Position numbers and translations under genes: made by a program. From Psammoneis japonica (taxonomy: Eukaryota), in NCBI GenBank assembly GCA_008632985.1, contig QPGO01000028.1:243598-307597 (forward strand): DNA of 64,000 nt, given 5' to 3'. The notes under the pieces are model-generated. The model was given only the letters and a program-made list of their open reading frames with translations. It had not been told where the DNA came from and did no database searches. Shown piece after piece: positions 990 through 53,985 of the stretch. Each line of letters starts with the position of its first letter. The first letter of the stretch is position 1.

Positions 990-1029
990 GTCCTAATGAC
1001 TGTGAAAAAAGGGATACCACACGTTAGAA

Positions 1030-2900: not shown

Positions 2901-2921
2901 AGAGGACAACCGACAAGCATC

Positions 2922-5485
2922 ATGCGTTTCTTCGCCTGGGCGATGACGACGTTCCTTGTCGCGTCGTCATGTCTCCTCTGTCACTGCTTTATTTGCCACG
3001 ACGGCATGGATGACAATTCTCCTGATCATCCATCTGTCAAGCATCATCAATTGGACAAGACGGCCAAAATAAATGCCGATCGAGCAGCCCTTGTCACGAC
3101 GGCGCTAGTGCGACCGCGAACACGCCACAAGGATGAATTGCCACGCGGACAAGCGGAAATGAATGTGCCGCAGTTCAGCATTGTGAAACACAGGCAGCTG
3201 GCCAAACGTTCAATGAAATTCGTCACCGGGTCTTCTCTCAAGCCAATCATGGAGAACATTTTTGCAAGCATTGGCTCTGCCTTTGCAATGGACGGAAAGC
3301 TCTATTTCGGTGCCACAAGAAAAAAACGTTTTGACCTGTGGGTGCATGACCCTTCAAAGGGCACCACTCGAATGCCAAAGGCCATCGAGAGCAAATCACC
3401 CCCTTGTGATTGGGCCCAAATTTGTGGAAGGCTCTATTTCCATGTGAGGGGTGATTTCAAATTGGGAGGTTCTCAGTGGGTGCACGACCCTGCAAGCGAC
3501 ACCACAGAGAAGATGTTCCATTGCGATGATTTTTATTCTTCGCTTGTTCCAGTGGAAGGAAAGCTGTTCTTCAAATTGTTGAGCACACGCAACAGGGACT
3601 GTGTGATGGTGCATGATCCGGCCAGTGGTGCAACACAAAGCGTGACATCTTTTAGTGGCAAATTGTTCTCTACGGGGCCTTTGACACCGATGGATGGAAA
3701 ATTGTGTGTCGCTCATGACGAGCTTTTTGTGATCGACGCAATGAGCGAGTCTACAACGAAGGTGAAGGAAAGTTGTCCTGGTCAGCATTGTGAAGTCTGT
3801 GCAAGTTCTTTGACACCAATTGATGGCAAGCTGTATTTTGGGATGTTGGATTACGCGGGAGGTGGATGCAAGCTTTGGGTTCATGACCCTGCGAGCAACA
3901 CAACTCAAATTGTGGGGGCACAAAGTCCGGTCGGACATGCGCTTGCAGACGGATTAACGCCAACGGATGGAAAGCTGTTTTTCACGGCTTGTGATGAAGT
4001 TCATGGCAGCGAGCTTTGGGTGCATGATCTGAAAAGAACCAATGCTCAAATGGTGGCTGACATTGACCCAGGTCAGGAGGGCTCAAATTCGAACAATGAG
4101 GGAAAAACACTCATGAATGGAAAGGTGCACTTCACAGCAAATGATGGAACACATGGACAAGAGCTTTGGGTGCATGACCCCATAAGTGACACAACCCGGC
4201 TCATGGAAGACATCACCCCTGGGAGTGGCAGCTCGTTTCCAAGATTCTTGAGACCAATGGATGGAAGGCTGCATTTCGTGACTGATCATGATGCGCATGG
4301 ACACAGGAGTTGGGTTCATGATCCCGCAAGCAACATCACTCAGATGCTCCACCCCGGTCCCATTTGCCCACTGGACAGAAAGTTGTGCTTTGCAGCTGGT
4401 GATTCCACCCACGGTGGTGAGCTTTGGGTGCACGACCCCACAAGTTGGGATTCTGAAATTTTTGCCGACATCAATCCACGCGGTTCATCGAACCCGCGTG
4501 ATTTTACCTCGATGAATGGAACGTTGTATTTCACTGCAGACGATGAAAATGGTCCACGACTTTGGGTGTGGGAAACCAATGTGGACACAGACACCGACGG
4601 GAACGGAGCACCTGATGCCACTGACAACTGCCGACTGGCTCACAATGCAAATCAGTCCGATGGCGACAGTGACGGGGTTGGCGATGCTTGCGACAACTGC
4701 CCCTCCATTCCGAATGCCGATCAATTCGATGGTGACAATGATGGTGTTGGCGATGAACATGACCTAAAATGGGGGAAGTCTCCAGCCAGCTGCTGGCTGA
4801 AGAATCTTGTGTAGAATTTGTACTGAATGAGTCTGTCAATCTGTGCGTTAGGGGGTTTTGATGAACGCTGGACAGACTCGTCGTATTCTGTGTACGTAAA
4901 AATTCTACTGGCAAAACCCACAAACGCACTGACGAGCAGACTTTTTTCAGCCAGCAGCTGGCTGGAGTCTTCCCCCAAAAAACTATTCGGCCGATGGGTG
5001 GAGTCAAAATTCGTGCATCACCGGGAAAAGACAATAACTTCACATGCCCTCCGCACTCCAAGTTGAAAAGGAAAGCATTCAGCATCACGGAAGGGAAGCC
5101 TCTCCAGCTCAAGATCAAGTTGAAGGACTGCAAGAATGAGTTGGTAACGAACAAGCTGGTGGAATTGGGAAATGAGCCAGAGCTGAGGCGCATCATGAAA
5201 GTTGCAGCGAATGGATCAGTGCAGGACACCGGATTTGGCGGTGGCAAAATGAAAGTTACCAAAAGGAATGATGGAAAATGGAAGTACAAGGTAGAGCACC
5301 CAAACGAGCTCGGGGGTGCCGGATGTTATGTGGCTGAATTCAAAATCCGTCTGCCCGGTGGGCGTGTGGTGCACGCGCACTCCCCGTTTCATCTAAAGTG
5401 GTTGAGAAGCATTGACAATGATGCCTGTGTTTTTGTAGACTCAGCGCGTTCTCTGTTGCAGTCCCATGTTCCAGCCTCCTTGTGA
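2922..5485 (+). pseudogene. Secreted ELWxxDGT-like beta-propeller repeat protein with thrombospondin type-3 Ca-binding repeats; interrupted by a MITE at 4771-4976 and partly hypermutated
   Basis: Signal peptide [13 protein letters not shown]; repeats GKLYF..HGxELWVHDP; [15 protein letters not shown] repeats; removing the 206-bp MITE puts ORF 4994-5485 in the same frame as ORF 2922-4814. Confidence 0.7.
4771..4976. mobile_element. 206-bp MITE with ~33-bp terminal inverted repeats
   Basis: GGGGGAAGTCTCCAGCCAGCTGCTGGCTGAAGAA ... TTTTCAGCCAGCAGCTGGCTGGAGTCTTCCCCC; second copy at 17111-17305; TSD not clear. Confidence 0.85.
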
Positions 5486-5853: not shown

Positions 5854-7449
5854 TTACGCGCTATTTCCAACAACAGAAAAGGGAAGAGGCGGGTCGTTTT
5901 GTGGCGACTTGCAGAATTCAATGAATCGCCAGGCGTGTTGTGGCGGCAAGGCAAGGTACACACTCGTGTCACCATCTTGTGTTCGCGGCACCTCGACGAT
6001 TAGGTTCTGCGCAATTCCAGAGTACGCCATCATGGCGCTTGCCTTGACGGTTGCACCCATGGAGACGTCGAGCCACCTTGGTCCCCATGAATTGACAAAC
6101 GTACCCTTTCCTTGGAACGTGTCGAATGCAAGTGGCCAAATGTCAAATCGATTTCGCAAGCCAAGGTGACGCGCCGCTTCAAACCAATCCTTTGTCTTGG
6201 TAATGTCTTCTGGGTGCTCCAGGCCCCTTCTCAAACCGCGGTGAACCTCATGAGCAAACTTGACAAGGGACGGCAAGGTCCAAAATGCATCCACAGGCAA
6301 AGAAAGATTCTCACAATAATCAAAGGCGGCGTTTCCAAAGTAGTCCTTTGGGAAGCGGTCGATACGACCGCGGAGATTGCAAGCCACGTGCAGCTTGTGA
6401 TCTGGTGACGTCGTTTTGGCAGACGACGTCACGCGTTGCACCAAGAGTAATACCGCACAAACGACTTCAAAACGAGAAACCCACTCGCCCTCGGGGAGAG
6501 ATTTTGTAATGGAATCCTTGAGCTTGGCAATTTGGTCGCCGTCAAGGCGCAATTCCAAAACGCGCTGACGGCTCATGCACCAAATAGCGCCCGGCAGTAG
6601 CTTGAATAACGTCCGTATACTCAAAGGATTCACGTCATATCCCACGTCATTCTTGATTCTCTTGTACAGTTCCGTCGTATCTTTGGCGGGTCGCTGGGGT
6701 TGTGTAATTCGTTTTCCAAAGACTTTTGGCTCGACAAGGTTTGGTGGTAACCCTTGTGGTGACGTGTTTGTACAGAAATGGGACCAAACTTGAAGCACGT
6801 CTGCAATGCTGTGCCCGTCACCCAAACCGTGGGATATACCAATGGAAAGGTATGACACCTTTTCCGCTTTGAAAATCGTTAATCGAGCACGCATCATGGG
6901 ATCATGTATGCCTGGCTCTCCCGAAAAGCCCGCAGACGGAGCATCCAGTCCAGCCTCTTGCCACTCCTTTCTCGTGCTGGATCCATCCGGCAATTTCTTT
7001 GTTTCTCCTGTAGATCCACTGAGCACCATTCCATGCACTACTTCAAAGGGTATACCCGCGTTTGAATTATCCAATACTACTTCATACTGAAGCTTGTTTG
7101 TGCCTGTATCGATGCGCGCTCCCAAGGCTGGAATGTGAGTCAAGGTCCGCTCGAGACCCAACTGAACCTGTGTTTCATCCAAAACGGCATCAAATCGTAA
7201 ACAAAAGGGCAACCAGTGGCTGGACCGTGATAGCCACTCGTCCACTTCCGATAGAGGTTCTCGTAGCTCCTCCTTGTTGTTTTCGAGATTTGTTGCCTTG
7301 ACGATCGTTTTGGAAACGACCCACGTTGAAACTATGGGATCCGAAGGTTTTTTGATTTGTTCATGTTTTCGTTTCAGAATTGTCAGGACAATGGCCGTCC
7401 CTCCCACAACAACAGCGGCTGCGAACGCATGCCCTTTCTGCAACGTCAT
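5854..7449 (-). CDS. BAHD/transferase-family acyltransferase (HxxxD) with N-terminal membrane anchor
   Basis: 531-aa ORF with SHGLGDGHS (HxxxDG), NLRGR, YFGNA and a C-terminal DFGWG-like WLDVSMG. Confidence 0.85.
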   Translation of the reverse strand: MTLQKGHAFAAAVVVGGTAIVLTILKRKHEQIKKPSDPIVSTWVVSKTIVKATNLENNKEELREPLSEVDEWLSRSSHWLPFCLRFDAVLDETQVQLGLERTLTHIPALGARIDTGTNKLQYEVVLDNSNAGIPFEVVHGMVLSGSTGETKKLPDGSSTRKEWQEAGLDAPSAGFSGEPGIHDPMMRARLTIFKAEKVSYLSIGISHGLGDGHSIADVLQVWSHFCTNTSPQGLPPNLVEPKVFGKRITQPQRPAKDTTELYKRIKNDVGYDVNPLSIRTLFKLLPGAIWCMSRQRVLELRLDGDQIAKLKDSITKSLPEGEWVSRFEVVCAVLLLVQRVTSSAKTTSPDHKLHVACNLRGRIDRFPKDYFGNAAFDYCENLSLPVDAFWTLPSLVKFAHEVHRGLRRGLEHPEDITKTKDWFEAARHLGLRNRFDIWPLAFDTFQGKGTFVNSWGPRWLDVSMGATVKASAMMAYSGIAQNLIVEVPRTQDGDTSVYLALPPQHAWRFIEFCKSPQNDPPLPFSVVGNSA

Positions 7450-7983
7450 GATGATTTTCGCTGGCGCAACACAGAGACTTTATTCTCACACAAAAACGCA
7501 CAGCAGTTACAGTATTGTGACTCGGCTGTTTCTCCTCTTCTCTTTTTGTGTTTCCCTTGCACAAAACTCTGTTCTCTCTGTTATTGCTGTTGCGCAGCGT
7601 CGTATCGATCTTTTATCTTTTCGGGTATTTCGTGTTGGGTTTCTGTTTTGGGGCGTTGAAATCTTACCGTACGGGTGTACCAAGAAATCTTGCACAAATC
7701 CAAGCGAAGAGCAATGCGGGGTCTGTGCATGCGGTGGAGTGCATCTCGCTCAAGTCGAGTGGCATGGAATTGTGCAATAGCCAGTGGTTCTTTCTCCTCT
7801 TGGGTTGAGGAGGGGCATTTGGATAGAAACTATAGGGGCCCTACTGTCAATCAGGATTGCATAGCAAGAACGGTGTCCTAAGCATTGGCTCCTCCTTCTC
7901 GGCTTTTTTCCTAGTTTATTCAGGACAACAAAAACAATCAACTCGATGAACAGCGGTTGTATTAGCTCAGAAAAGAGTGATCG

Positions 7984-8754
7984 TTACACGTCATATTCAG
8001 TGACACAGGCAACGGCAACCGCCATAGATTCCCTAAGAACATGGTCCTGTTTGCATTTGTCGCACTCGCTACAATCTTCACTATTTGCAGCGTTCCATGC
8101 AAGGAGCTCCATAAAACTAGGTACAGAATCGTCCGTGTACAGGCCTCGGATGCCATCATTGCAACAAATTGCTTGATGAAATAGCATTGACATCTCAGAC
8201 TCTTCAAGCAGGCCCTCCACATTTAAGCCAGCCAGCATCAATAAGGTGTTTCGACTACCTACGCGAAGACGCAAGAAGAGAATGCTCACGCGCTTGGTTT
8301 CAGGCAGATCGAAACGGCATCCCAGACGGAATGCTCGAACACACTCATCAATTTCATTCTGTTTCGAACCATAGAAGGACTTGAGTACATTTCCTCCAGC
8401 TTTGGGTAATTGATTTTGAAACTTCGCCGGGTACACACCGTCGCATGCAATTTTGAGACTCTCGCTCCTCATCATGAGGCGCTCAAACCAAGACAATAGA
8501 GTGTGTACATTTTCAGTAGTAATCACAGGCTGAGCAACTCCAGCCTCGAGAAACTTTGACACAATTTTCCATTCGGATGGATCGTCATCGGGAAACTCTA
8601 CCCTCATTTCGTTCTTTTCCTTCATGTCGTGAGAGAACATCGCGTCAAAATACTCGCTCGCATGTCGAAGCTGGGAGCTGTTGTGCATGAACTCTTCGTC
8701 TCCCACAATGACAGTCACATCATTCGTCGTGTCCTGGCGATTCGTCATTGTCAT
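7984..8754 (-). CDS. BTB/POZ domain protein
   Basis: DVTVIVGDEEFMHNSSQLRHASEYFDAMFSHDMKE..RVEFPDDDP is a typical BTB N-terminus; first ATG at 8754; paralogous to 32731-34307. Confidence 0.85.
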   Translation of the reverse strand: MTMTNRQDTTNDVTVIVGDEEFMHNSSQLRHASEYFDAMFSHDMKEKNEMRVEFPDDDPSEWKIVSKFLEAGVAQPVITTENVHTLLSWFERLMMRSESLKIACDGVYPAKFQNQLPKAGGNVLKSFYGSKQNEIDECVRAFRLGCRFDLPETKRVSILFLRLRVGSRNTLLMLAGLNVEGLLEESEMSMLFHQAICCNDGIRGLYTDDSVPSFMELLAWNAANSEDCSECDKCKQDHVLRESMAVAVACVTEYDV

Positions 8755-8994
8755 GGCAAGCTCTGTGGTGGACCCAAAGTCCAAAAGAAACTGTCGCTAA
8801 GCACCGGCTAAATGCGCTCGTCGAAACCCGGTTTTGCGCTCATTTATGCGCTGAAACTGGCTACGTGTATTCTGCGTAGATACAGTATGGATAGATGACG
8901 TCACAGCCTCCTTCCAACCCTGCGCGCACTGTCTGCGCGCTGCCGCGAGCTTTCACAACCTTGACTGCGATCCCACGCGACATTCTTGAGATCT

Positions 8995-10407
8995 GGGACA
9001 CACGGCATTTTGTCGCATTTGGCGACATTTTCTTAAATGAATTGATGATTTGTCGCGAAAAGACGCGAATTGCGACAAAATGTCCGGGTTGGCGACAAAC
9101 GGGACAGAAACATTGTTTGGTTGGGTCACAAAATGATCAACGTCATTGTTTGCAACCAACCTGAACTTTGGCGATGTCGTTTCAACAAGTGGGGCAATTA
9201 ACAGAATTTGGCGATCGATGTCATTGACGAAAATTCATCCGACAAAATTTGTCGCATGACAAAATTTGTCGTGTCCGACAAATTTTGTCGACAAATTTTG
9301 TCGGCATGCAACACGACAAGACACGACAAGACACGACACGTCACGTCACGACACGACGACTCACGAACGAAACACCCACGCCCGCCACACACACCAACTG
9401 CTGACATCTCCGTTGACACTGCCCGCATGTCTCTTTTGCACGATGATGCAAAGCGACGATCATGCCGCTCTCGGCGGTCTCCATGCTCTCGTCAATGCCG
9501 GGACAACATCGCACGCTTCTACACAGTGCAACAGAATGTGCCGGCATGTGTTGCTGCACTGTGCCTTTTGTCAGTGCAACTGGGCACTTCTGAATGTTGG
9601 GGAGCATTGCGTTGTCGGCATGTCGCAAACGTCCGTCTGTCGGCGTTTGTCGGCGTTTGTTGGCGTTTGTCGGGGTTTGTCGGGGTTTGTCGGGTGCGAC
9701 AAAATTTGTCGCACATCCGACAAAATTTGTCGCATCCGATGGGTTCCAGTCCCAGGTGGGACTTTTTGTGACATTTGCCCCGTAGAATTCTGCGTGCGAG
9801 CTCTGCAGTTCGTACTCTGGTTGATGGACACATTTGTCTTCGACATAAAAAAAACGGCCAAGTTTGCAGTGCATCTGTCCCTGTTCGTGCTCAAAGTTTT
9901 GGACAATGCGCCTGCCCCACGCCATTCTTAAGACACTCGAGAATGGCGTAGAAGAAAAAAATGTTAAAAGTTGTTCAATGGACAGCCTGACAAATGCACT
10001 GTAAAATCATGCAAAATTTCGCCAAAATCACGCAGAAATGCACGTGCGCGACATACGACGCGATTCAAAAAACTGTCGATGTCACAGTTCAGCAGTGCGA
10101 GGTCCCACCTGGACCTGGAACGCGTCATCCGACAAAATTTGTCGCACCCAACAAAATTTGTCACACGCATGACAAAATCGCCAAAACATCAATCAACAAG
10201 TGCAGTCTTCGCCGAAAGTTAAATTCATCACATGGCACTGCAGTTGACACAACGTTTGTGTTTGGGACATGCCATCGCCAATTAAATGATGATTTTGTCT
10301 TGTTTGTCACCAATGGTTGAAATTTGTCTCAAAGGGCGTTTTTCACGACAAATCGTCCAATTCATTTGTGGGAATGTCGCAATTGGCGACAAAATGCCGT
10401 GTGTCCC
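8995..10407. mobile_element. Non-autonomous TIR DNA transposon with ~70-bp imperfect TIRs and many internal CGACAAAATTTGTCG near-palindromes
   Basis: GGGACACACGGCATTTTGTCGC at 8995 vs GCGACAAAATGCCGTGTGTCCC ending at 10407; internal (ACACG)n and (TGTCGGCGTT)n tracts; the MITE at 9738-10126 is nested inside. Confidence 0.75.
9738..10126 (+). mobile_element. ~390-bp MITE, copy A, 4-bp TSD ATCC
   Basis: Ends GATGGGTTCCAGTCCCAGGTGGGAC ... GTCCCACCTGGACCTGGAACGCGTC; ATCC at 9734-9737 and 10127-10130; homologous to 11131-11520. Confidence 0.85.
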
Positions 10408-10688
10408 TGCATGTTTGAATGACTGAACAGCAAGCACTGTCACTTGCTTGAGCAGGTGACAGCTGTGAATGCACTTCCTCCGGCAAGCGACAATTGTCCA
10501 CGAGGAAACACTGTGTCATTCTTTTTGGGCCGTACGATGCAGCACTGCTTCTGCACATTTTTTGGATGTGTGGTCAGAACGTGCACCGTCACAGCGTTCG
10601 CACAAATCGGCACAAAAACACACCACAATGACCAAAATGCCGCTGCTGCCGACACGACAACACGTTGCCGCTACCCTGACAGGCCTCC

Positions 10689-11119
10689 TGCAGCATGCTT
10701 CGCCACTGGACAACACGGCGAGACCGTGCACAAGCCTCTTGTACGTGGCAACGTAGCATTGTTAACACGCACCTGGGAAGCACGACCACAGGAGGGCGTG
10801 GCTCCAGGTCTTGGGCAATTCCAGAAGGATGCTGAGAGAGCATCCGTGTGAAGCACACTGGCCCGTCGTCTGGCCCATGATGGCAGCGTGATTCCACACG
10901 ATGACATCACTCGTGCATGGCGCGTGATGGCTTGATTCGCACGATCCATGATGCGAACGCACGATTGATTTGATGCGATCCAAATGCGAACGAACAGGGA
11001 TTTGGCAAGATTCCCTGTTCACACGATCCCACTTTCTCTGCTCTAAACTGGCTCACAATTTTTACAACGACAAAGTCGCAACACATCTTCTTTTCAGCGC
11101 CTGGTGCATGCATGGGGCA
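10689..11119 (+). repeat. 5' LTR
   Basis: Colinear with 15946-16376. Confidence 0.95.
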
Positions 11120-11130
11120 CAGCAACGTCA

Positions 11131-11520
11131 GACGCGTTCCAGGTCTAGGTGGGACCTCGCACTGCTGAACTGTGACATCGACAGTTTTTTGAATCACGTC
11201 GCATGTCGCGCACGTAGATTTCTACGTGATTTTTTCGATGTTTTGTGTCATTTTACGGTGCACTTGTTGAGCGATCCGTCCAACAACTTTTGACATTTTT
11301 TGTTACAGCGCGATTCTATGATGTCTTAAGAATCGCGTGGGGCAGGCGCATTTGCAAAAACGTTGAGTGGCAACAGGCATGGTTGCACCACAAACTTGGC
11401 CGTTTATTTGATGTTGAAGACAAATGCATCCATTGGTTAAATTCTCACACTGCGGAGCTCGCACATAGAATTCTACGGGCCCAATGTCACACGGAGTCCC
11501 ACCTGGGACTGGAACCCATC
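11131..11520 (-). mobile_element. ~390-bp MITE, copy B, 4-bp TSD GTCA, inserted 11 bp downstream of the 5' LTR
   Basis: Ends GACGCGTTCCAGG ... CTGGAACCCATC; GTCA at 11127-11130 and 11521-11524; reverse complement of 9738-10126. Confidence 0.85.
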
Positions 11521-11574
11521 GTCACTCCCGCACATTGTGCGAGGCAACGAAATCAGCAGAAATGAAACTACGAA

Positions 11575-12651
11575 ATGTTGGCAGGACCGACAAATCTCAA
11601 AACGACCATGAAGAAGCGGGTTGAGCCGCCGATTCCGTTCGCACGGCCGGAGAAGAAAGAGCTGCAGCAGGGCGAGCACCAGACGTTCAAACTACATAAC
11701 AACCCCACTGATCCAGACAGTCCAACGCACGAGATGGGCATTCCGCACCTTTCTGCGGCTGCATGCGAGACACTCCCAATCTTTCTGCGCAATGTGGATC
11801 GCGTGCATGAAGGACAAAACATGACGACCGGGCCAGCGAAATTTGCCCTCATGCGTGACCTGCTGCAGGGCGATGCTCTGACGTCATTTGATGATGCCGC
11901 TGACAAGCAGGCATCCCAAACCAATGCCACGCACGCAGCATGCGTCGCGAAGCTAAAGGAAAGCATCTTCCCACATGGGGCGGTGCTGTTGCAGAAGCGT
12001 CATTTGAGGCGCTTCATGCGCAAGCCCGCAGAGGTTTCTGCTCGTGACTGCATCGCGAGGGCTGTTGAAATTAACGGCCACATCTCTCAGTTTCCACCCG
12101 TGATGGAGGATGGAGAAGCACCGGCACCATCACCCAATGACGAACTGCGCGATGTGTTCGAGTGCGGTGGGCCGAATGCATGGCAGAAGTTCATGACGCT
12201 ACAGAATTTTGACCCGTTGGCGCACACTGTCGCCGAATTTGTGCAGTTCTGCGAGCGCATCGAGCAGGTCGAGCTTGCCGAAGGCAACCTGGACCAACAT
12301 GCCAAGGTTCCACGCAAGCGGGGACGTAGAACGGACAATCCTGAGTCATTGATCATGACCCAACGGAACACCCAGAAGTCGTGTGTGCCACACGGGACTA
12401 ACTGTGGACATCATGCGGAGGATTGCCGTCAGCTCAAGCACCACGTGAAACGTGTCAAGACTGGACATTCCAATGACGGAGGCAGCAAACCCAGCGCAAA
12501 ACCTCGGAATGAGGAAGACATCAATGCTCTCATCGGATCGAAGGTCGAGGAGTTCTTTGCCAACGCTCAGAAAAAGCGCAAGGCACGCGAGGAGGAGCTC
12601 AATCACTTCCGCGACCTCAACTTAAGTGGTTCCGAAGATTCGGACACCTGA
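11575..12651 (+). CDS. gag: Gypsy gag-like ORF (mutated)
   Basis: 358-aa ORF between the LTR and the protease; degenerate zinc-knuckle-like CVPHGTNCGHHAEDC; no Tyr residues left. Confidence 0.75.
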   Translation: MLAGPTNLKTTMKKRVEPPIPFARPEKKELQQGEHQTFKLHNNPTDPDSPTHEMGIPHLSAAACETLPIFLRNVDRVHEGQNMTTGPAKFALMRDLLQGDALTSFDDAADKQASQTNATHAACVAKLKESIFPHGAVLLQKRHLRRFMRKPAEVSARDCIARAVEINGHISQFPPVMEDGEAPAPSPNDELRDVFECGGPNAWQKFMTLQNFDPLAHTVAEFVQFCERIEQVELAEGNLDQHAKVPRKRGRRTDNPESLIMTQRNTQKSCVPHGTNCGHHAEDCRQLKHHVKRVKTGHSNDGGSKPSAKPRNEEDINALIGSKVEEFFANAQKKRKAREEELNHFRDLNLSGSEDSDT

Positions 12652-12783
12652 GAAGGGGGCCGACACGATGCAGGCAGTTTTGATGCACCAGATGAATGCA
12701 CAAATGAACAACTGAATTACCATCGTACACGTGTTGTAGGCCAATCCCGCAAACGGGTTAAAAAGACTCATCTTACTCCAATC

Positions 12784-15700
12784 TTGTTCACAGCTATGAA
12801 TGCTGAACATGGCAAGGGCAAGACTCAAACCATTAAGGCACTGCTAGATAGTGGCGCCAGCAGCACTCTACTCGACAGTCGATACTGTAAACGTCTGCGA
12901 AGCCATTCAACGGCTGAGACAAACTGGACTACGGTAGCATGCTCGTTCAGTACGTCTAACAACTGTACCGTTAAATTTTGGTTAACAGAATTATCCGAAA
13001 CTGCAGAACTTAAACACACCGTCCACGTACACAACGGAAAGTTGGGCAAGTACGATATGATTATTGGACGTGACATTCTGGAGACACAAGGCATTGACAT
13101 TGTCTTCTCTAAACAGATGATAGAGTGGCCATTGGTCAATGGAGAAGTACCAATGAGGCACGTAGATGCTACGGTAGAAACCTCCTTCTATCTTCAAGAT
13201 CCAGAAGACTTATCTTCGGAAACCGACCGGATTTCGCGTATTTTAGACGCTAAGTACGCGCCGGCCTGCCTCGAGGACATAACGCGAGGGACAATAGGAC
13301 TTTCTACAGTTCAACAAAACGACCTTTTGGCACTATTGAAACGCCATGAGTCCTTATTTGATGGGACATTAGGAGAATGGAAGGGAGAACCCTACCATAT
13401 CCAACTCAAGGAGGGTGTAGAACCATACCACGCTCGTCCGTATAAAGTGCCTCGTGCGTACGAAGCTACGCTACGTAAAGAAGTAGAACGCCTAGTGCGT
13501 ATCGGTGTTCTCAAACGCGTTAACCGATCCCAATGGGCAGCTCCATCATTTATCATACCGAAGAAAGATTTAACGGTACGCTTTATTAATGATTTCAGAG
13601 AGCTGAATAAACGGATCAAGCGATTGCCTTATACGATTCCTCATATCCAAGATGTGCCACTTAAGCTCGAAGGCTTTATGTGGGCTACATCGCTGGATTT
13701 AAACATGGGCCATTATCACATCCGATTGGATGCTGACAGCAAGAAGCTCTGCACGCTCATCTTCCCGTGGGGCAAGTGTGAGATGCAGGTGTTGCCCATG
13801 GGATTATGTATTCGCCAGACATTTTCCAAGAACGCATGTCAGGCTCATTTCAAGATCTGTCGTTCGTTCGAACGCACTTAGATGACCTTCTCGTCGTGAC
13901 GAAAGGCACCCATGAAGATCACCTCAACAAACTTGAAGAAGCTTCATTGAGGGTCCAGAAAGCAGGACCAAAAGTCAACGCAACTAAATCTCACTTCTGT
14001 CAAACCCAATTAGAATGCTTGGGTCATCTGGTCAACAGAGACGGAGTGCGACCAACACCCAATGAAGTCGACGCCATCAAGCGAATCGCGACCCCAGCCA
14101 ATGAATGCGACCTGCGCTCATTTGTTGGTGTGGTGAACTGCTGCCATGACACGTGGATTGGACGTTCTGAAGTCTTGGCTCCGCTGACACGACTCGCAAG
14201 CGAGACTGTCAAGTGGGAGTGGACGTCCGTTGAAGACGAGGCGTTCGAAACCGTTGAACGGGTGATGTCGGATGATGTTTTGTCATCACATCCTGATTTT
14301 AACAAACCTTTTGAGACACATGCCGATGCCTCTAAATGTCAATTGGGAGCAGTTGCATCCCAAGATGACAAACCCATTGCCTTTTACAGCAGAAAGCTTG
14401 ACAGTGGGCAATTAAATTGTGCAACAACGGAGAGAGAATTGCTCGCCATTGTGGAGACATTGAAAGAATTTCGAACGATTCTCCTTGGTCATCATGTGGT
14501 TGCACATGCTGATCATAAAAATCTTGCGCACAAAGCATTCAATGCCGAGTGCGTCATGCGCTGGTGGTCAACATGCGAAGAATGTGGTCCCGAATTACGC
14601 TGTGTTGAGGGCACCCATGACCTCATCGCTGACGCTCTCAGTTGCCTTCGACCAGCACCCAGCTTGCCTTCCGAGGCCAATCCGGATGTAAAAGACACTC
14701 CATCGAGTCGTCTTTTGCATGAAGCTTTTAATGCAGACACGCAAGATGAGGCATCTCTGCCTGTTGGCTTCAAGCGCATACAAAAAGCACAACAAAAGGA
14801 CAAGCGCCTGCTCTCACGAGCTGAGGACTCGTCCGACTGCTCCATTTGTGCGTGTCGTGGGGGAGGGTCATCACGACAGTTAATCTGTCATAAGGACAAA
14901 ATCGCAGTGCCACAGTCATTGCAGGTTCTGCTAACTGAATGGCGCCACGAGACACTGTGTCATCCAGGTGAGACACGTGCAGAAATGTCCACTGCCCAGC
15001 ACTTCTGCTGGCCTGGCATGAGGTCTACGGTGCATTCTACGTGCATTGAGTGCGATCGATGCCAGAAGACAAAACGCCGAACGCAGCGTTGTGGGAAGCT
15101 GCCAGAAAAGGTCGCAGAGATAATTCCATGGGAGACTCTGTGCACAGATGTGACAGGGCCACATAAAATTCAAAGACGCGGAAAGGACACTTTGCAATTG
15201 TGGGCAGTCACAATGATTGACCCAGCAACTGGGTGGTTCGAGATTGAAGAAGTGTCCATGAAACGCGCAGACGTCGCAGCAAACGTCGTGGAACAAACGT
15301 GGCTGTGCAGATGTCCGTGGCCAACCCAGGTGGTTTATGACCGTGGGACAGAATTTATGGCAGAATTTAGCCAGATGATTAAATGACTGTGGGATTTTGA
15401 AGAAACCCATGAGCAAACGGAATCCACAGGCGAATGCCACAGTGGAACGTGCACACCAGACACTTGGTGACATGGTGCGTTCCTTTTCAGTGCAGGGTGT
15501 GGAACTGGACGAAGATGACCCATGGAGTGGCATCCTCTCCGCAGCAGCCTTCGCCATTGGAGCTGCGGCACATGCGACCACGCATGCAAGTCCCACGCAA
15601 TTGGTCTTCGGACGCGATGCGGTTTTGTCTGTTGCCCATCGTGCCAAGTGGAAGCACATAGAAACCAGAAAGCAGAAGCTTGTCCACTTAAACAACAAGC

Positions 15701-15900
15701 GTGAAAATCAGAAACGCAAGGAGCATCAATGCACCGCAGGGCAATTGGTGCTTGTCAAACAGGAACAATCCTCTAAATGCGGTTCTGACAGCTGTGCAGG
15801 ACCCGCCAGAGTTGTCCGTGTGTGTGACAATGGCACGTTGCGCACCCAGAATGGAGCGCTGACAGATGCGCACAATCTGCGGCAGATTGCACCCTGTCAC
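12784..15900 (+). pseudogene. pol: Gypsy pol (aspartic protease, RT, RNase H, integrase) with frameshifts near 13810 and 15385
   Basis: LLDSGAS protease motif; WAAPSFIIPKK, DFRELNKRI, HLDDLL (RT); ADAS, YSRKL, ERELLAIVE (RNase H); HETLCHPG, C..CDRCQ, YDRGTEF, NPQANATVER (integrase). Confidence 0.92.
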
Positions 15901-15945
15901 CAGCAAGACATCCTGTCACTTGATGGCCCTGATCATGGGGGAGTG

Positions 15946-16376
15946 TGCAGCATGCCTCGCTGCTGGACAACACGGCGAGACCGTGCACAAGCCTCTTGTG
16001 CATGGCAATGCAGCATTGTCAACACGTGCCTGGGAAGCACGACCACAGGAGGGCGTGGCTCCAGGTCTCAGGCAATTCCAGAAGGATGCCAAGAGAGCAT
16101 CCGTGTGAAGCACACTAGCCCGTCGTCTGGCCCACGATGGTGGCGTGATTCCACATGATGACATCACTCGTGCATGGCGCATGATGGCTTGATTCGCACG
16201 ATCCACAACGCGAACGCACGATCGATTTGATGCGATCCAAATGCGAATGAATGGGGATTTGGCAAGATTCCCCATTCGCACGATCCCACTTTCTCTACTC
16301 TAAACTAGCTCATAATTTTTACAACGACAAAGTCGCAACACATCTTCTTTTCAGCGCCTGGTGCATGCATGGGGCA
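15946..16376 (+). repeat. 3' LTR
   Basis: Colinear with 10689-11119; preceded by the PPT. Confidence 0.95.
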
Positions 16377-17110
16377 CTCCAACTCATCAATCAACCCACA
16401 AGCGACCATGCATGGTGTTGAAACGATGTCATTTGGCCTGTTCTTGCGTCTGCATCATTGATGGAAGATCGTCTTTTTCGTTTGTACAGGGTTTTACGTG
16501 CTTTGGCTCGACGGCAATGGTGGAGCGGCTCTGCAAACAACAAAATCGGATTGAAGGTCCTGCATCATGGCACTTTCGATCTCAGGGGATGATGGATGAC
16601 CAGCACATGGTGCACTGTTGTTGAAATGAGTGGTTTTGGGCAGTCAGCGGCCAAATTCTTGCCGTCATTGTCGCGAAGCACGGCGTTCCACCACGACGTG
16701 AAGATCCATGTCGAAATTGAATCAGGTTATGAGCGCAAACATGATTGTGCAGAGGCAGCACTGCGCAATGCGGCCCAAAAAGAATGACACGGTGTTTCCC
16801 CGTGGACAATTGTCACTTGCCAGAGGAAGCATGCAGCAGTGAGTTTTGTGATGTGACTGTCACTTCTTGTCTCTAGAGAGGGCCAATTGCTTCTGTTGCA
16901 GTTGCAAGCTCCTCATCATGAGTGTGTTGCAACGTTCAGGTGTGATGCCACGTAGAATCCTGGCATGTTTCTACGCAGTGGCGCATTTTTGCGCATTTAG
17001 GGCTAGCGCAAAATGAGACCCAAAAACTCAAAAATGTGCACTGCGCATTTAGCCGGTCCTTGTGCTCCTCTCCACGTTTTGAGATCAGATCCATTTCGCT
17101 CGATTGACCT

Positions 17111-18330: not shown

Positions 18331-21300
18331 CAGAAAGAGCTGGGCTGCTGCCATGGTGGAAAATGCTTGTTGAGAACATGTCGGCGATGCAGAAAAAGAC
18401 AAGCGGACTGGCGAAGTGTGAACTGCTCACCAGTTTAATTCTGCTGGACATGATTTTAGAAAAGAAATGATTTGGCACCGCTTGTTTGTTTCTGCTGCCA
18501 GTGTTGACAGGTCAAGTGCTGCATTTGTGTCATCTGGCCTCTCTGTCCATTTGCTGAGGCACGTGCACTCTTCGTCTTCAGAACCCCGTGGAACAACTGT
18601 CACCAGCGCTGCACTGCACATGTCACTTGTCTTTGTCGGACTGTGACTCTCCTCAATCTTCTTTCTGGGGTGCCATTCACATGCACCAAGAAATGACTTG
18701 TGGTCAATTTGCAAGAACTTGCTAAAGTGCAGTGCATCAGGGATGTTCTTTTCACTCCTTCCAGTGTGGCTTGTGAGCCAAAATGATTTCCCGGGGATAA
18801 AACCATCAAAGTTGCCTTCCCTGTCATTGAAGCATTCAACAAAGGAATCAACCTTGGCACAAACCTCCTGTGATGAGGTCTTGGGCACCTTTGCACTCTG
18901 TCGGCCGCAGCAGCAGCACACAGCAAAAATTGCGTGAGACAAGTGATGTCAAAACGGCTCATTAAATCAAAATTGGGAAGATGCATCGCATTGCAGATGT
19001 CTTCTGATGGGGATCACAGACACAATGATGCACCGATGCAGCCTCCCACATCAACATTGACGATGTCGCAACAGCAAATGCACCATGGTCGGGATCATTT
19101 TTTGTCACACAAAAAGCACGAGGAATTTGGATGGCAGACGAACATTGAAAAAAAAGATTCAGTCGAGTTGTTCCAGCCAAATGGTCACCCCCACGTAGAA
19201 GATTCACGCAGTGCTGGCTGGCTGGAGAGACGTCCCCCAGCTTCGGGCATTGCAAGAAATCTTTCACAGAGATCCAAGAAATGGCAAATGGTGACAGGGG
19301 GGGGGGGGCAGATGCGGGGCCCCCGCTGTTTTCCATTGATCATGCCATGCAGGCTCTTCATGACATGTTCATGCAGTGTGCAAACAAAGCAGCCCAAAAG
19401 CACAATCGTCCACGCACACTGTCGCGTCGCACAATTTTTACACATGAAAAACACACACAAACATGCTGCGGGGCCCCGCTGTGGGGATGGTGTCAGCTGC
19501 TTGCGTGTTTGATTTTTATTTTACAGGCGGCAAAAAGCAGTCATAGAGCACTCAGTGACGGAGCAAGGAAAAAACGCAAGGGCCAATCAATCGAATTGAT
19601 TGACATCAAGCAGATTGACTCAGCAAGGCAGCAAGCACAGCAATGTGCTGCCCAGTCACTGGCGGTGTTCACGAAAAAACAGCAGGCCACCAATGCAGCC
19701 AAACGCAAGAAAAAGGCAAGCTCTGCATGCACCAATTCCAAAAACCCGCCAGCTGCAAAAACAAAGCCACCCCTTGAGCCAGCGGAGCCAAGTGTCTTGT
19801 CTGCAATTTGCCTGCATTGGACACATTGAAGCACAACTTGTGTGCTGTGTCCATGCACACAACCTGCTTGTTGATGGATGGTGACCATGGAAGATTGTGC
19901 TGGGATTGCAGCAACGACTTGCAATGCCCAGAAATTAAAAACAGTTTGCAGTGCAATTGTCATGATCACAAAAGCCAGGATCATTTCCGGTTGTGTGAGA
20001 GGCAGTGGGAAGTTGAGGGTTCAGCATGCAAGAAAGACGGGTGCAACAACAGGTGGGAGAAAAATGACAAAAAGACAGCGTGGTTGTGCAACGGCAAGAA
20101 TCAAGGAAGCTGTGGGTTGGTTCACAGTGTGGGAGAATGCTTTGAGCAAGCTGTGCCAGCAGAAGGACGTGGCGGCCACAAATCCAGGTGCTGCAACTGA
20201 AGCAGGCAATGCAGGTCATTCTTCAGTTGGTGTGAAAGTGCTCTTTGTTAAGATGTGCCCTGACAGGGTGGCATTAAGCAGCAACAACAATCAAGGAAGA
20301 AATCAAAACACAAATGCAAAACAACAATTGGGGTCCACTGCAGAAAGCTGCGCAAGCATGCGGTGCGGCCACCAGAGTTTGCTGGGATGGAAATCTGCAG
20401 TGCCACTCTGATGATGACAGCCTTGTGAAGGAAGAAAGGTGGTGTGCTGAAATGGGGTGCATGAAGCAAGTGGTTGAGTGTGGCTGGTTGTTCTGTTGAT
20501 TGACAAATGCTGACACAGATGTGACATTGATGAGAACATTGGCAGGTTGCCATGATGACTCATGAGTGATGAGAATGTGTGCATGTGAGAGGTGTGCATG
20601 CAGGGGGTCATGCGGCATGCACTTCCTTGACATGCACAGAAAACCCCAACATGCACGCAAACCCCCCAACATGCAAGCAGCATGAAATCGTGAGACACAC
20701 ATGACAGGGGACACCCAACATGTCAATTTCACTCCCCCATCACGTCGTGCAACTTTGGTTGATCTTGTTTCTTGGGCAGAATGTTGCCTCCAATGACCCA
20801 CATCTCCTGTGGACATGCATGAAGATGAGACAGACATTGAGAATTGCTGGCTGTTGGAGACAACACAACTGAATTGCCTGGTGCTTGCAGACAAAAATTT
20901 CTGAAAATTTCAGGCAATTCCATCGGTGATGTGAGTGAGGCCACAGTCATCCTGCCACCAACTAAAAAGTCCAGGAATCACTTTTCCTGCTCAAAGAGGA
21001 AGCTGCTGGGTGGTGCAAGTCTCTTTGTGTGGCCCCAGTGCCAAGAACTGTGTTCCAGCTCACTTTTTGGTGTGCTGCAAATGGAGGGTGCCATGGTGGC
21101 ATGTCCATGGAAAACCAATGGGGCAACGCACTTTTCAAAAATCCAGTTCCCGTGCCAATCTGCACAAATTGGATGCATGTAGAATGTGCAGCAAAATTTG
21201 CAGCAATCAATTTGAACTCACTCTGACACACACAAACATCATGGCAATGATGCTGTGATGTCGGCGATGGCCACACACGACAACAACAGCCAACTGGGGG

Positions 21301-22551
21301 GTTCTGGTGCACCGAGATGACAACTGACATGATGACAAATGCAGTGAAAATGTCAGATGACAATGATGGAGTTGTTTTGGGAGCTGCTTGAGCGATTGGT
21401 GATGGTTGATTTTTGACACGCACAACTTGGTGCTGAAAACACTCACATTTTTCTGCCGCGGTGGGGCTGATGATTTTCACTTTTTGGGGAGTGCATTTGG
21501 AGTTTTCTCATTTGATTGCATTGACGAAGCACTGCATGAGCACGCGACAAGAGATTTTGACAAAAAGTTGGATTTGCAGTCATCATGGAGGATTGCCACG
21601 GGGTTTTTAGCACGGTGAAGCACAGAGGGACGATTTTTTCATGGATTTGCAAAAGATCCTGCATCCCATTGAATTTGCGTGCATGACATTGGTGGATCAA
21701 TGTATTTTTTACATGCAAGAAGCACAATGATGTTGACACACCCGACATGATGGACTTCCCATGTTGTTGTTGCGACAAGCAAAATGTTGTTGCATTCGGC
21801 TCGTAGAGTCCAGTGCCATTTCTGTGCACATGGCATCCACTGGAACCAGATTTTTGAAAGTGCGCAGCCCCATGACAACCAGTTTGCAGTGAAGTGGGAT
21901 CAGCTCATCAACATTGCCTGGAAGCATGCAAAAAGAACTTTTGTGCCACAATTTTGAAGGTGGCAACCAAACCAAAGCAAGGCAGAGAAGAGACAGCACC
22001 AGCTCAAAATTGGCAGACACAGCACAACAGCAGCAGTTTGTTGTTGAATCAACATGAACTGCCGCAGCTCCATCATGCTGATTCGAACAACACTTCTGCC
22101 TGCAAGCAAGTCGCACTGATTGTTTTGACAATTGACCCATGCAGTGACAAGCGGCACTGCCATCAACGACGTGGTGTTCCTCTGCATGACTCTGGTTGCT
22201 TGGGTTCTTCTTCTTCCTCCCTCCCCATTGTGCCACATGGCACCATTCATTCCTTCATTCCCACCCACAGCATTGCCCAAATTGGCATTTGTTCCGCCAT
22301 TCATGGCAGCAGCAACACCAATCTCTCCATTGTTTGCACTCTCAATGCTGCCATTTTCAACATGATTGAGGAGGACAGTCCCCCATCATGGCACTCCACA
22401 TTGTGTGACACTGTTGCTCACAGCATTGCTGCCTTGAGGAGGCAATGGGTCACACCATGGGCAAATTTTCCATTGTCCCGCGGCCAATCACCATGCCAAC
22501 ACCCATTCACCCTGTGCCTTGGGATGTGAAATGGCTGGAATTCCTGTGAAT

Positions 22552-27350: not shown

Positions 27351-27362
27351 AGTGCAAATTCA

Positions 27363-53952: not shown

Positions 53953-53985
<33 letters not shown>

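Follow-up and report, generated by a model that had tools for sequence, protein, structure and literature searches.

Post-integration loss of TpA and CpG in a retrotransposon and in non-genic DNA of the diatom Psammoneis japonica

We analyzed a 64,000-nucleotide stretch of the Psammoneis japonica genome (the window; assembly GCA_008632985.1, contig QPGO01000028.1, positions 243,598 to 307,597, forward strand), which contains a young but dead Ty3/gypsy LTR retrotransposon copy in a pennate diatom host. The two LTRs of this element differ almost exclusively at pyrimidine-purine (YR) steps, and the direction of change is from TA to TG or CA and from CG to TG or CA, opposite to fungal RIP. We establish here the pattern and its direction, along with its symmetry between strands, its timing after integration, its relative rate and the island structure of the spared DNA. 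We consider it probable that they result from a post-integration, two-arm hypermutation of silent non-genic DNA at TpA and CpG, with an inferred deamination chemistry.

The element and its flanks comprise the following features:

10685 to 10688, forward strand: target-site duplication, left copy CTCC
10689 to 11119, forward strand: 5' LTR of 431 bp with TG...CA ends, repeat family D4
11566 to 12648, forward strand: gag-like open frame of 361 codons, with in-frame TGA at 11563 and 12649 on either side
12652 to 13881, forward strand: protease and start of the reverse transcriptase (RT), weak PF13975/PF00077/PF00078 matches
13782 to 15386, forward strand: C-terminal part of the RT, RNase H and integrase zinc finger (PF00078, PF17919/PF17917, PF17921)
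15379 to 15945, forward strand: C-terminal part of the integrase in a third frame, Tyr 0.0%
15946 to 16376, forward strand: 3' LTR of 431 bp, aligning to the 5' LTR without gaps
16377 to 16380, forward strand: target-site duplication, right copy CTCC

The LTRs are genuine and belong to one bona fide insertion, as seen from their TG...CA ends, the CTCC on either side and an empty site, represented by one contig of a public sequencing run that joins 10684 to 16377 with four shared letters fitting either side of the joint. Direct LTRs with such ends, a short target-site duplication and the pol order PF13975/PF00077, PF00078, PF17919/PF17917, PF17921 along 12652-15386 place the element in Ty3/gypsy, with the protease matches and the RVT_1 match on the 12652-13878 piece lying under the Pfam gathering scores; the gag-like frame gave no Pfam hit. 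Coding capacity has been lost through the TGA stops at 11563 and 12649, the replacement of 23 of 25 conserved tyrosines and two frame breaks, one near 13808 (other copies have one extra letter at 13808/13809) and one near 15380 (some copies have two extra letters there), which is without effect on family membership. The LTRs, the PR-RT-RH-IN order and the diatom host are shared with the GyDi groups into which Maumus et al. placed diatom Ty3/gypsy elements in 2009 (PMC2806351, as far as drawn on here). In database comparisons, the best protein matches were unnamed metagenome sequences, with identities not exceeding 56%.

Given that both LTRs are copied from one template, the differences between them arose after integration. 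A preliminary description had counted about 25 differing sites, 24 of them at TA, CG, TG or CA steps, without indels and on a near-zero background. The alignment of 10689-11119 with 15946-16376, which compares the assembly bases of the sole LTR pair in the window (n = 1), has 431 gapless columns, of which 33 differ by 33 transitions, 0 transversions and 0 indels, and both counts coincide once each doublet is taken as one site. The class counts also proved exact: 9 sites are CG versus TG/CA, 7 are TA versus TG/CA and 8 are CA-versus-TG doublets (16 columns), leaving a single other difference (column 11, CCT versus CTT), the only non-YR transition. YR steps cover 240 of the 431 positions (55.7%) but hold 32 of the 33 differing columns (binomial P = 1.1e-7 for at least 32), and 33 transitions out of 33 would be improbable even if two thirds of all changes were transitions (P ~ 2e-6). 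Both strands are affected (18 C/T columns versus 15 A/G columns), as had been described. The two observations named beforehand as evidence against the pattern, many differences outside these steps and a strong strand asymmetry, are thus both absent, with 1 of 25 sites outside. Independent changes in each LTR after integration, likewise proposed earlier, agree with a single insertion that carries a 4-bp duplication and an empty-site contig.

The direction of change had been left open in the preliminary description. To polarize the differences, we fitted the 120 YR steps of the LTR pair by likelihood under two models with equal numbers of parameters. The model in which TG/CA is the sink reached a log likelihood of -149.74, compared to -157.35 for CpG decay combined with TG/CA->TA, a gain of 7.6 log units, and its expected class counts (1.3/8.4/24.0/9.1/7.3/70.0) closely follow the observed ones (2/7/24/9/8/70). 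The fitted loss per LTR was 0.76 for TA (about 0.6-0.88) and 0.16 for CG, with a background near zero. The CA-versus-TG double sites number 8, against 7.3 expected under the sink model and 2.6 under a CpG-only two-hit model with TA creation, so that they most likely trace back mainly to TA, not CG, in the ancestor. TA is the source and not the product, showing that the process is not a RIP-like CA->TA change.

Protein comparisons point in the same direction, using homologues that are at most 55-56% identical to the element. At 17 columns with Tyr in at least 70% of 60 homologues, the element has Y once, C nine times, H five times, and R and A once each, while control residues in the same set were largely kept (F 12/14, W 10/11, H 6/6, D 12/12, G 17/17). 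With 40 longer homologues, 25 conserved pol Tyr (TAY) columns outside an untouched patch described below read Y at 2, C (TGY) at 14, H (CAY) at 6 and other residues at 3. One-step replacements at conserved columns number 84, divided into 49 T>C changes at TpA, 5 C>T changes at CpG, 9 further transitions and 21 transversions, the last probably reflecting family divergence. Composition follows suit: the gag-like frame has 0.3% Tyr, and the residues encoded by 13782-15386 include 0.6% Tyr and 4.7% Cys. We also compared the element with other copies of its family, for which 40 of about 1,500 variant positions were listed, 20 of them with at least 88% of other copies differing; among these 20, we found 6 CG->TG/CA, 5 TA->TG/CA, 3 other transitions and 4 transversions. 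The remaining 2 of the 20 are CA->TA and represent one shared LTR column, a contrary case at column 375 (11063 = 16320), where the element has TA and all other copies have CA. Only 1 of the 33 differing LTR columns (column 190) is polarized directly among the listed positions.

A control outside transposons is provided by a BTB-domain gene and its decayed paralogue, the former serving as the reference state:

7984 to 8796, reverse strand: open-frame copy of a BTB-domain gene, normal in composition (23 TA and 39 CG in 8023-8791)
27364 to 28099, reverse strand: decayed BTB paralogue with 2 TA and 8 CG

Out of 19 aligned TA steps, the paralogue kept 1, while 10 became TG and 8 became CA; out of 37 aligned CG steps, it kept 5, with 16 becoming TG and 14 CA. 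TG and CA were themselves mostly kept (42/45 and 61/74). The CG changes are transitions and symmetric across strands, as expected for CpG decay of the 5-methylcytosine (5mC) type.

In the explanation we favor, a dominant arm would act at the self-complementary TA step, converting TpA to TpG or CpA by an A:T to G:C transition, and an arm about 8-fold slower per site would convert CpG to TpG or CpA, both acting context-specifically on both DNA strands of the integrated element. Since TG/CA is the sink, G+C content stays near 50%; TAA and TAG stops would never be created and existing ones would be removed. By analogy with the chlorarachniophyte Bigelowiella natans, the TpA arm may consist of enzymatic adenine deamination in DNA at 5'-TA, producing inosine that is read as G, and the CpG arm would be ordinary deamination of 5-methylcytosine at methylated CpG, with the methylation of the affected DNA presumed from other diatoms. 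Both deaminations would act on the same silenced compartment. A Pfam scan of 21 ORFs of the window (4 + 17) retrieved no deaminase.

The self-complementarity of TA makes A>G on one strand indistinguishable from T>C on the other, and the LTR, BTB, protein and strand data fit both equally well. The TpA arm might therefore involve a modified thymine, such as 5-hydroxymethyluracil or an adduct resembling base J, which pairs wrongly with G or is misrepaired, giving T>C without adenine deamination. In dinoflagellates, another SAR lineage, hydroxymethyluracil occurs preferentially at TpA and TpC, which lends this route some plausibility. However, we did not see the corresponding effect at TpC: 52 of 70 TC steps were kept in the BTB paralogue, and 13 of the 18 changes were TC->TT, a side effect of TCG->TTG. 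We consider a modified thymine rather unlikely.

The same signature extends over much of the window, whose overall observed/expected (o/e) ratios are 0.30 for TA, 0.66 for CG and 1.52 for TG and CA. In 22 of the 64 1-kb bins, TA o/e is below 0.2 and more than 85% of the YR steps are TG/CA, and CG depletion tracks TA depletion (Spearman 0.78, 64 bins). Saturated blocks, given without strand, a gene island and a patch inside the element stand out:

12701 to 13700, forward strand: untouched patch, o/e of TA 0.95, CG 1.13, TG 0.99 and CA 1.00, GC 0.454
20001 to 24000: saturated block, TA o/e 0.06-0.08, CG o/e 0.27-0.32, 0 differences in run contigs
27001 to 32000: saturated block, TG/CA making up 93-96% of YR steps per 1-kb bin
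47501 to 50250, reverse strand: gene island of normal composition with an intronless importin-alpha ORF (47938-49758)
50251 to 55000: saturated block, beginning ~500 bp upstream of the importin ORF
58001 to 64000: saturated block, TA o/e 0.03-0.06, CG o/e 0.08-0.25, TG/CA 91-97% of YR steps

Depletion is strongest in 28001-32000 (TA o/e 0.01-0.04, CG o/e 0.16-0.17). Over 32 2-kb bins, neither TG nor CA is consistently in excess of the other; the lowest uncorrected P values (0.014 and 0.042) both belong to element bins, and none survive correction for 32 tests. Genes appear as sharp-edged islands of normal composition, including a few hundred base pairs of flank where checked, at the importin gene. 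Here, TA per 250 bp drops from 9-19 to 0-2 on both sides and the island ends within one 250-bp bin. Similarly, the borders of the patch in the element are sharp (~12700 and ~13700), its Tyr content is 3.0% (frame 12802-13602), and it kept 38 of 42 conserved protein columns, compared to 313 of 433 outside. The ratios between the remainder of the element and the patch (0.22/0.95 = 0.23 for TA, 0.90/1.13 = 0.80 for CG) agree with 1-0.76 and 1-0.16 from the LTR fit.

These spared regions bear on whether any targeting is needed, since TA and CG could be hypermutable genome-wide and purifying selection alone could preserve the genic ones, in line with the coincidence of untouched stretches with ORFs bearing Pfam domains. 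Yet the importin island extends ~440 and ~490 bp into its non-coding flanks, where TA is normal or high (15-19 per 250 bp), genes have a CpG o/e of 1.0-1.2 although synonymous CpG should decay, and the 1-kb patch lies untouched inside a dead element. We judge selection without targeting to be improbable, slightly more so than a modified thymine. Under two-arm hypermutation, the same process would have run to saturation in the decayed gene copy and the intergenic DNA and spared transcription units, suggesting that silent non-genic chromatin, and not repeats as such, is what it targets or is restricted to. The patch that escaped both arms counts against this explanation too, as a uniform process would not predict it.

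Taking the non-YR positions of this LTR pair as background, we obtained relative rates, not rates per generation: TA per dinucleotide changes at ~1245-fold the per-site background, with a lower bound of 263, and CpG at ~149-fold, with a lower bound of 31. Sequence support came from the public run, whose contigs reproduce single-copy saturated stretches of 643-2502 bp with 0-2 differences in each. Each such stretch is covered by a single contig at a word depth of 57-72, which does not equal copy number; 27499-30000 or more, for example, is single copy in the run, on one contig with 0 differences. These single-contig stretches may nonetheless descend from repeats too old to be recognized. A technical source of the pattern would be base-calling or polishing that errs systematically at modified bases, given that the run is of unrecorded library type and probably the window's own source sample, so that its contigs are not independent support, that it contains 52% of the element's sampled 31-mers, and that the untouched patch could reflect over-polishing towards the family majority. 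Such an artifact is very improbable in our view, since run contigs at this depth reproduce the saturated stretches, codon changes (Tyr to Cys/His) and the paralogue comparison show a coherent pattern, and errors would not respect gene borders.

In ascomycetes, RIP converts CpA/TpG to TpA and drives AT-richness and stop codons. Like the process described here, it is a DNA-level, post-integration, both-strand, transition-only and dinucleotide-specific process that kills transposon copies, and diatoms carry DNMT4 enzymes of unknown function related to fungal RID (PMC9998398, in the parts drawn on here). RIP or another C-to-T process, with the CA-versus-TG doublets stemming from very hot CpG in both LTRs, would account for the one shared CA->TA column. 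Nevertheless, we find it hardly credible: besides its poorer likelihood and the conversion of conserved Tyr to Cys or His, TpA/ApT is 0.03-0.05 and (CpA+TpG)/(ApC+GpT) 2.1-2.2 in the saturated blocks, the inverse of RIP. The LTRs have corresponding values of 0.18 and 1.65-1.91, so the excess of TpA that RIP leaves is found in neither, contradicting this reading. TpA is destroyed here, G+C remains near 50%, and TAA/TAG vanish, with 102 TGA, 4 TAA and 2 TAG in the three forward frames of 28001-32000. A dependence on duplication is not evident, single-contig stretches being saturated, although these may be old repeats.

Equally hard to sustain is ADAR- or APOBEC-like editing of retrotransposon RNA or cDNA before integration, already discounted in the preliminary description: the preference of ADAR for U before the edited A, mentioned in the Discussion of the B. 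natans preprint (10.64898/2026.01.13.699255, in part), would yield sense-strand TA->TG, but TA has gone to CA as well as to TG (14 Tyr->Cys and 6 Tyr->His, besides the strand balance of the LTRs), a non-transposon pseudogene and intergenic DNA are equally affected, and strand-biased changes common to both LTRs were not found, so that editing is contradicted for the LTR differences.

Among the sources drawn on here, each in part, the closest known case and sole precedent is the TpA-only hypermutation of integrated giant-virus and virophage DNA in B. natans (TpA->TpG/CpA; Mettrop et al. 2026, bioRxiv 10.64898/2026.01.13.699255), for which measurements covered de novo events and episodic activity, a rate of ~6e-7 per site per generation, about 1000-fold over background, was reported, and an ADAT2-like DNA adenine deaminase was proposed. 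There, changes are almost exclusively A>G/T>C, all at TpA, giving TpG or CpA by strand, as we found from homologues, paralogue and likelihood. Both cases also share a local rate orders of magnitude above background, silent DNA (foreign in B. natans) as the target with ordinary genes spared, and TpA depletion with CpA/TpG enrichment both in clustered 1-kb windows and in ORFs for reverse transcriptases and transposases. They differ in the host (a rhizarian there, a diatom of the Stramenopiles here), in the targets (viral integrants there; an LTR retrotransposon, a gene-family pseudogene and whole intergenic blocks here, with all non-genic DNA seen affected), in the extent of depletion (TA o/e 0.45 in the NCLDV region versus 0.01-0.08) and in the evidence (mutation in real time versus a footprint alone). 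Furthermore, CpG decay accompanies TpA loss here, whereas the term "CpG" is absent from the text of that preprint as drawn on here. This second arm has the exact signature and compartment of 5mC deamination at methylated CpG of silenced transposons, known from LTR elements of Phaeodactylum tricornutum (PMC2806351, PMC9998398, in part), as seen in the 9 single and some of the double LTR hits and in 30 of 37 pseudogene sites, but 5mC deamination leaves the faster TA arm unexplained. A mutation-accumulation study of P. tricornutum reported a GC->AT bias, and the term TpA is absent from the portion of its text drawn on here (PMC6604790). Our literature search found nothing comparable for diatoms.

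If the diatom footprint holds, TpA hypermutation is not a curiosity of one alga, and its SAR-wide distribution, enzyme and targeting become testable in a group with genetic tools. More speculatively, the two arms could form a chromatin-targeted DNA-editing defense, deaminating adenine in TpA and (methyl)cytosine in CpG everywhere outside active transcription units, with an ancient machinery shared with Bigelowiella as an inherited SAR-wide immunity. If true, this would be a mirror image of RIP, disabling transposons and pseudogenes by missense changes with base composition kept and stops removed; as such mutagenesis is GC-neutral and creates no new TAA/TAG, it would carry other costs and other benefits than RIP does in fungi. 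Practical consequences follow as well. An LTR divergence of 7.7% with essentially zero background change is useless as a clock here, and the disappearance of TAA and TAG lets long spurious ORFs fill saturated DNA, misleading gene prediction. Codon-usage and CpG o/e methylation proxies will likewise mislead in such genomes. Finally, in a contig from a related diatom, CpG-poor bins keep a normal TA content (o/e 0.66-0.74), so the two arms are separable, and they may be unrelated.

Alignment of the two long terminal repeats (LTRs) of the Ty3/gypsy retrotransposon copy at 10689-16376 (5' LTR, 10689-11119; 3' LTR, 15946-16376) was gapless over 431 columns, of which 33 differ. All 33 are transitions (18 C/T and 15 A/G columns), with no transversions or indels, and all except column 11 fall within pyrimidine-purine (YR) steps, which make up 55.7% of the LTR (32 of 33 inside; P = 1.1e-7). 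Nine columns set CG against TG or CA, seven set TA against TG or CA, and 16 form eight adjacent CA/TG doublets. Counting each doublet once, we recovered the roughly 25 sites that a preliminary description had found by eye, 24 of them in the TA/CG/TG/CA class and none an indel. The near-zero background claimed there was also borne out (a single transition outside YR steps and no transversions over 2 x 431 sites), as was the occurrence of changes on both strands, with 18 C/T versus 15 A/G columns and a 10:8 ratio of TA-to-TG over TA-to-CA changes in a pseudogene of the window. The LTR observation is confirmed in all particulars, and the reasoning built on it holds.

Between its LTRs the element carries, in order, matches to protease, reverse transcriptase, RNase H, and an integrase zinc finger, which is the Ty3/gypsy layout, and the copy is dead, its coding frames broken near 13808 and 15380 and stopped by in-frame TGA codons at 11563 and 12649. 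Its LTRs end in TG...CA, CTCC adjoins both ends of the element, and one contig from a public sequencing run joins 10684 to 16377 with four letters common to both sides, representing the empty target site. The CTCC flanks together with this contig indicate that both LTRs stem from one insertion and were identical at that time. Summed word depth over the element in a public run was ∼200 to 1,400 times that of neighboring bins, which, as a depth rather than a copy number, fits an abundant family. No RNA run was listed among the public sequencing runs containing the element, and a metagenome search with its pol protein found no related elements. A self-BLAST of the window (25 repeat pairs) yielded no second LTR pair; older repeat pairs in the window also have transversions, e.g., 81 transitions and 15 transversions in a pair of BTB-domain sequences.

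The element itself lies within another repeat. Its leader region recurs just upstream in inverted orientation at 81% identity (9737-10126, inverted, versus 11131-11521), and an 84-bp segment of one flank is repeated, inverted, in the other (10474-10557 versus 16746-16829, inverted). The upstream flank (10001-10667) has a summed word depth of 25,820 in public run X1, against ∼65 to 170 in low-depth bins, again a depth and not a copy number. The LTR and leader, up to ∼11520, show 4 to 6 times the summed depth of the remaining element, with a divergence point of many contigs at 11517-11520, which suggests a shorter non-autonomous relative.

Two models with equal numbers of parameters were fitted to the 120 YR steps of the LTR pair. 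A sink model, with decay of both TA and CG to TG/CA, reached a log likelihood of -149.74, with the following observed (and expected) counts: TA/TA, 2 (1.3); TA/x, 7 (8.4); CG/CG, 24 (24.0); CG/x, 9 (9.1); CA/TG, 8 (7.3); and same sink, 70 (70.0). A model of CpG decay with TA creation reached -157.35 and expects 2.6 CA/TG sites. The fitted loss per LTR is 0.76 (roughly 0.6 to 0.88) for TA and 0.16 for CG, an 8.3-fold difference in rate, and the inferred state at insertion is about 23 TA and 34 CG. Under this fit most CA/TG sites, described at first as independent hits at one site, are TA steps struck in both LTRs, on opposite strands.

We also polarized the changes against pol homologs, whose identity to the element is at most 55 to 56%. 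Seventeen columns carry Tyr (TAY) in at least 70% of 60 homologs; in the element, nine of them read Cys (TGY), five His (CAY), and one each Tyr, Arg, and Ala. Residues used as controls are retained (Phe, 12/14; Trp, 10/11; His, 6/6; Asp, 12/12; Gly, 17/17). With a second set of 40 longer homologs, for which the three frames of the element were read through with X at the breaks, the 25 Tyr columns outside an internal patch of normal composition (12701-13700) contain 2 Tyr, 14 Cys, 6 His, and 3 other residues. One base change suffices to explain 84 replaced conserved columns: 49 by T>C at TpA (either strand), 5 by C>T at CpG, 9 by other transitions, and 21 by transversions. A further 31 columns require two changes, and 9 are ambiguous. 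Given the low identity of the homologs, the 21 transversions probably reflect ordinary divergence between families.

As a non-transposon control, we compared an open-frame BTB-domain gene (8023-8791) with its decayed copy (27364-28099). The decayed copy keeps 1 of 19 aligned TA, the others having become TG (10) or CA (8), and 5 of 37 aligned CG, with 16 now TG and 14 CA, against 42 of 45 TG and 61 of 74 CA kept. Polarization of this pair with an outgroup assigned 21 losses of CpG and 8 of TpA to the lineage of the decayed copy, along with six “T>C at TpG” changes that are probably mispolarized, and the direct gene-versus-copy table is cleaner. Finally, we considered the 20 positions at which at least 88% of the other family copies differ from the window, among 40 listed of ∼1,500 variant rows. 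The window carries a CG-to-TG/CA product at six, a TA-to-TG/CA product at five, another transition at three, and a transversion at four. The other two, both CA to TA, are one LTR column common to both LTRs, so this change predates insertion. Polarizing the LTR differences with the family, as had been proposed, succeeded among these listed rows for column 190 alone of the 33 (CG to TG, in the 5' LTR).

The process thus acts on DNA after integration, through strand-symmetric transitions at TA and CG that have TG/CA as their sink and are fast relative to background. Relative to the LTR background, rates per dinucleotide are about 1,245-fold higher for TA and about 149-fold higher for CpG (lower bounds, 263 and 31, respectively). 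We found no consistent skew between TG and CA counts over 32 2-kb bins; the lowest uncorrected P values, 0.014 and 0.042, both came from element bins, and none was significant after correction for 32 tests. Tyr-to-Cys and Tyr-to-His replacements stand at 14:6 in the element, and overall the hypermutation has no strand bias. The fast arm would arise by deamination of adenine at 5'-TA in silenced DNA and the slow arm by deamination of 5-methylcytosine, also in silenced DNA. A TpA arm that proceeds via a modified thymine, with no adenine deamination, would be compatible with the sequence since TA is self-complementary, but we regard this route as unlikely and favor adenine deamination.

The process spares transcription units and one internal patch of the element. 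In this patch, all four YR dinucleotides are at ∼1.0 of expectation, Tyr content is normal, and the edges are sharp; the observed/expected (o/e) ratios are 0.95 for TA and 1.13 for CG, versus 0.22 and 0.90 in the internal region outside it, where about three quarters of TA have been lost. The outside/inside ratios (TA, 0.23; CG, 0.80) agree with the 1 - 0.76 and 1 - 0.16 expected from the LTR fit, and the interior damage is therefore compatible with a wholly post-insertion origin. A short contig from public run X2 (13393-13555) differs from the window at 3 of 163 letters, versus 6 to 10% elsewhere in the element. The patch could stem from protection, from later gene conversion by a pristine copy, or from over-polishing of the assembly.

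Across the whole window, o/e ratios are 0.30 for TA, 0.66 for CG, and 1.52 each for TG and CA, and TA and CG depletion are correlated (Spearman 0.78, 64 bins); this joint depletion with TG/CA excess indicates that TG/CA acts as a sink. In saturated blocks, i.e., those nearly free of TA and CG (such as 20-24, 27-32, 50-55, and 58-64 kb), TA o/e is 0.01 to 0.08, CG o/e is 0.08 to 0.32, and TG or CA accounts for 88 to 97% of YR steps per 1-kb bin. Of the 64 1-kb bins, 22 combine a TA o/e under 0.2 with a TG/CA share of YR steps above 85%. The saturated sequence is complex, not low-complexity, and its G+C content is 0.46 to 0.50, as expected if losses from CG to TG/CA balance gains from TA to TG/CA. 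Public-run contigs with word depths of 57 to 72 match saturated stretches with 0 to 2 differences over 643 to 2,502 bp; errors in the window's consensus therefore do not account for the composition, although this run, whose library type is unrecorded, may derive from the very sample that was assembled. In 21 kb of saturated DNA (1001-3000, 20001-24000, 27001-32000, 51001-55000, and 58001-64000), 63 TA survive, 17 of them in TTAA, compared with roughly 7% by our rough estimate from base composition; possible causes of this excess are a preference of the process for certain flanks and recent back-mutation.

Changes from TA to TG/CA create no stop codon (TAA and TAG become TGA, CAA, CAG, or TGG), and CGA to TGA alone makes one. 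Both in-frame stops of the element are TGA, and the three forward frames of 28001-32000 together contain 102 TGA, 4 TAA, and 2 TAG. Long ORFs are abundant in saturated DNA because mutation has removed TAA and TAG, and those without a family match are best explained as spurious and are a pitfall for predicting genes in this genome. ORFs of at least 170 amino acids without a Pfam match occur in TA/CG-free DNA, e.g., at 52430-53791 (+) and 986-2029 (-).

Untouched stretches of the window map to genes (importin, BAHD-type transferase, BTB, FKBP, methyltransferase, and others), and its gene parts are intron-poor. A local BTB/POZ-domain family has three open-frame copies and at least three decayed fragments in a saturated block.

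Genes and decayed gene copies of the window
3-992 (-), LanC-like, single uninterrupted ORF
5854-7479 (-), BAHD-type acyltransferase, single uninterrupted ORF
7984-8796, 32731-33585, and 33627-34451 (-), BTB/POZ copies with open frames
27364-28099, 29095-29183, and 29785-30083, decayed BTB/POZ fragments in saturated block
38298-39611 (-), Methyltransf_24 (match below the Pfam gathering score), single uninterrupted ORF
40262-41119 (-), FKBP, single uninterrupted ORF
47938-49758 (-), importin-alpha, single uninterrupted ORF

The importin-alpha ORF is intronless, with 606 codons. Its best named matches are from the pennate diatoms Nitzschia inconspicua (83%), Cylindrotheca closterium (82%), and Fistulifera solaris (79%); the top match overall is 84%, with no identical protein in the database. 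We assign the window to the nuclear genome of a raphid pennate diatom; an initially suspected dinoflagellate origin, with 5-methylcytosine plus hydroxymethyluracil, was rejected on account of these matches. The flanks of the ORF keep normal composition for about 440 bp on one side and 490 bp on the other, and at the island's edges TA drops from 9 to 19 to 0 to 2 per 250 bp within one bin. Codon selection alone might be thought to keep TA and CG in genes, but it would leave unexplained the normal TA in these non-coding flanks, the CpG o/e of 1.0 to 1.2 inside genes, and the untouched patch within a dead element, and we give it slightly less credence still than the modified-thymine route. On these grounds we interpret the hypermutation as restricted to a silent compartment, and we infer that it is guided by chromatin.

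A comparable process has been described in a preprint on mutation-accumulation lines of Bigelowiella natans (Mettrop et al., bioRxiv 10.64898/2026.01.13.699255). There, two regions of integrated viral DNA received 231 of 302 nuclear substitutions; with one exception these were A>G or T>C, and all such changes lay at TpA, yielding TpG or CpA. The hypermutation was seen in some lines only, clusters poor in TpA and rich in CpA+TpG were enriched in reverse transcriptase and transposase domains, and an ADAT2-like adenine deaminase was proposed as the agent. The preprint mentions neither diatoms nor CpG, whereas the diatom case pairs the TpA arm with CpG decay. Our literature searches turned up no account of TpA depletion or hypermutation in a diatom, and as far as they reach, this is the second known case of TpA-directed hypermutation and the first in diatoms; what is new relative to B. 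natans is its coupling with CpG decay and its saturation outside genes. Fungal repeat-induced point mutation (RIP), which produces TpA, is the reverse of the diatom process, where TpA is destroyed and TG/CA is the sink, and it is ruled out both by the likelihoods and by the RIP indices (TpA/ApT, 0.03 to 0.05; [CpA+TpG]/[ApC+GpT], 2.1 to 2.2). LTR elements of the model diatom P. tricornutum are CpG-methylated (PMC2806351), and diatom DNMT4 enzymes, related to fungal RID, are without known function (PMC9998398).

We also fetched 80 metagenome importin loci, left out 45 shorter than 5 kb, and analyzed the remaining 35. The TA/CG depletion signature appeared in 0 of 425 1-kb bins of these gene-rich contigs from mixed taxa, which is weak evidence on its spread. 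What stands out is the TpA arm, which, judging from surveyed contigs that are gene rich and of mixed origin, is not a general feature of diatoms. In bins 5 to 9 of L006, the closest long relative (82% importin identity), lies a 5-kb block poor in CpG, with a CpG o/e of 0.13 to 0.54 and a TA o/e of 0.33 to 0.74. Its two most CpG-poor bins keep a TA o/e of 0.66 to 0.74, i.e., CpG decay without saturating TpA decay, showing that the CpG arm is ordinary and separable from the TpA arm.
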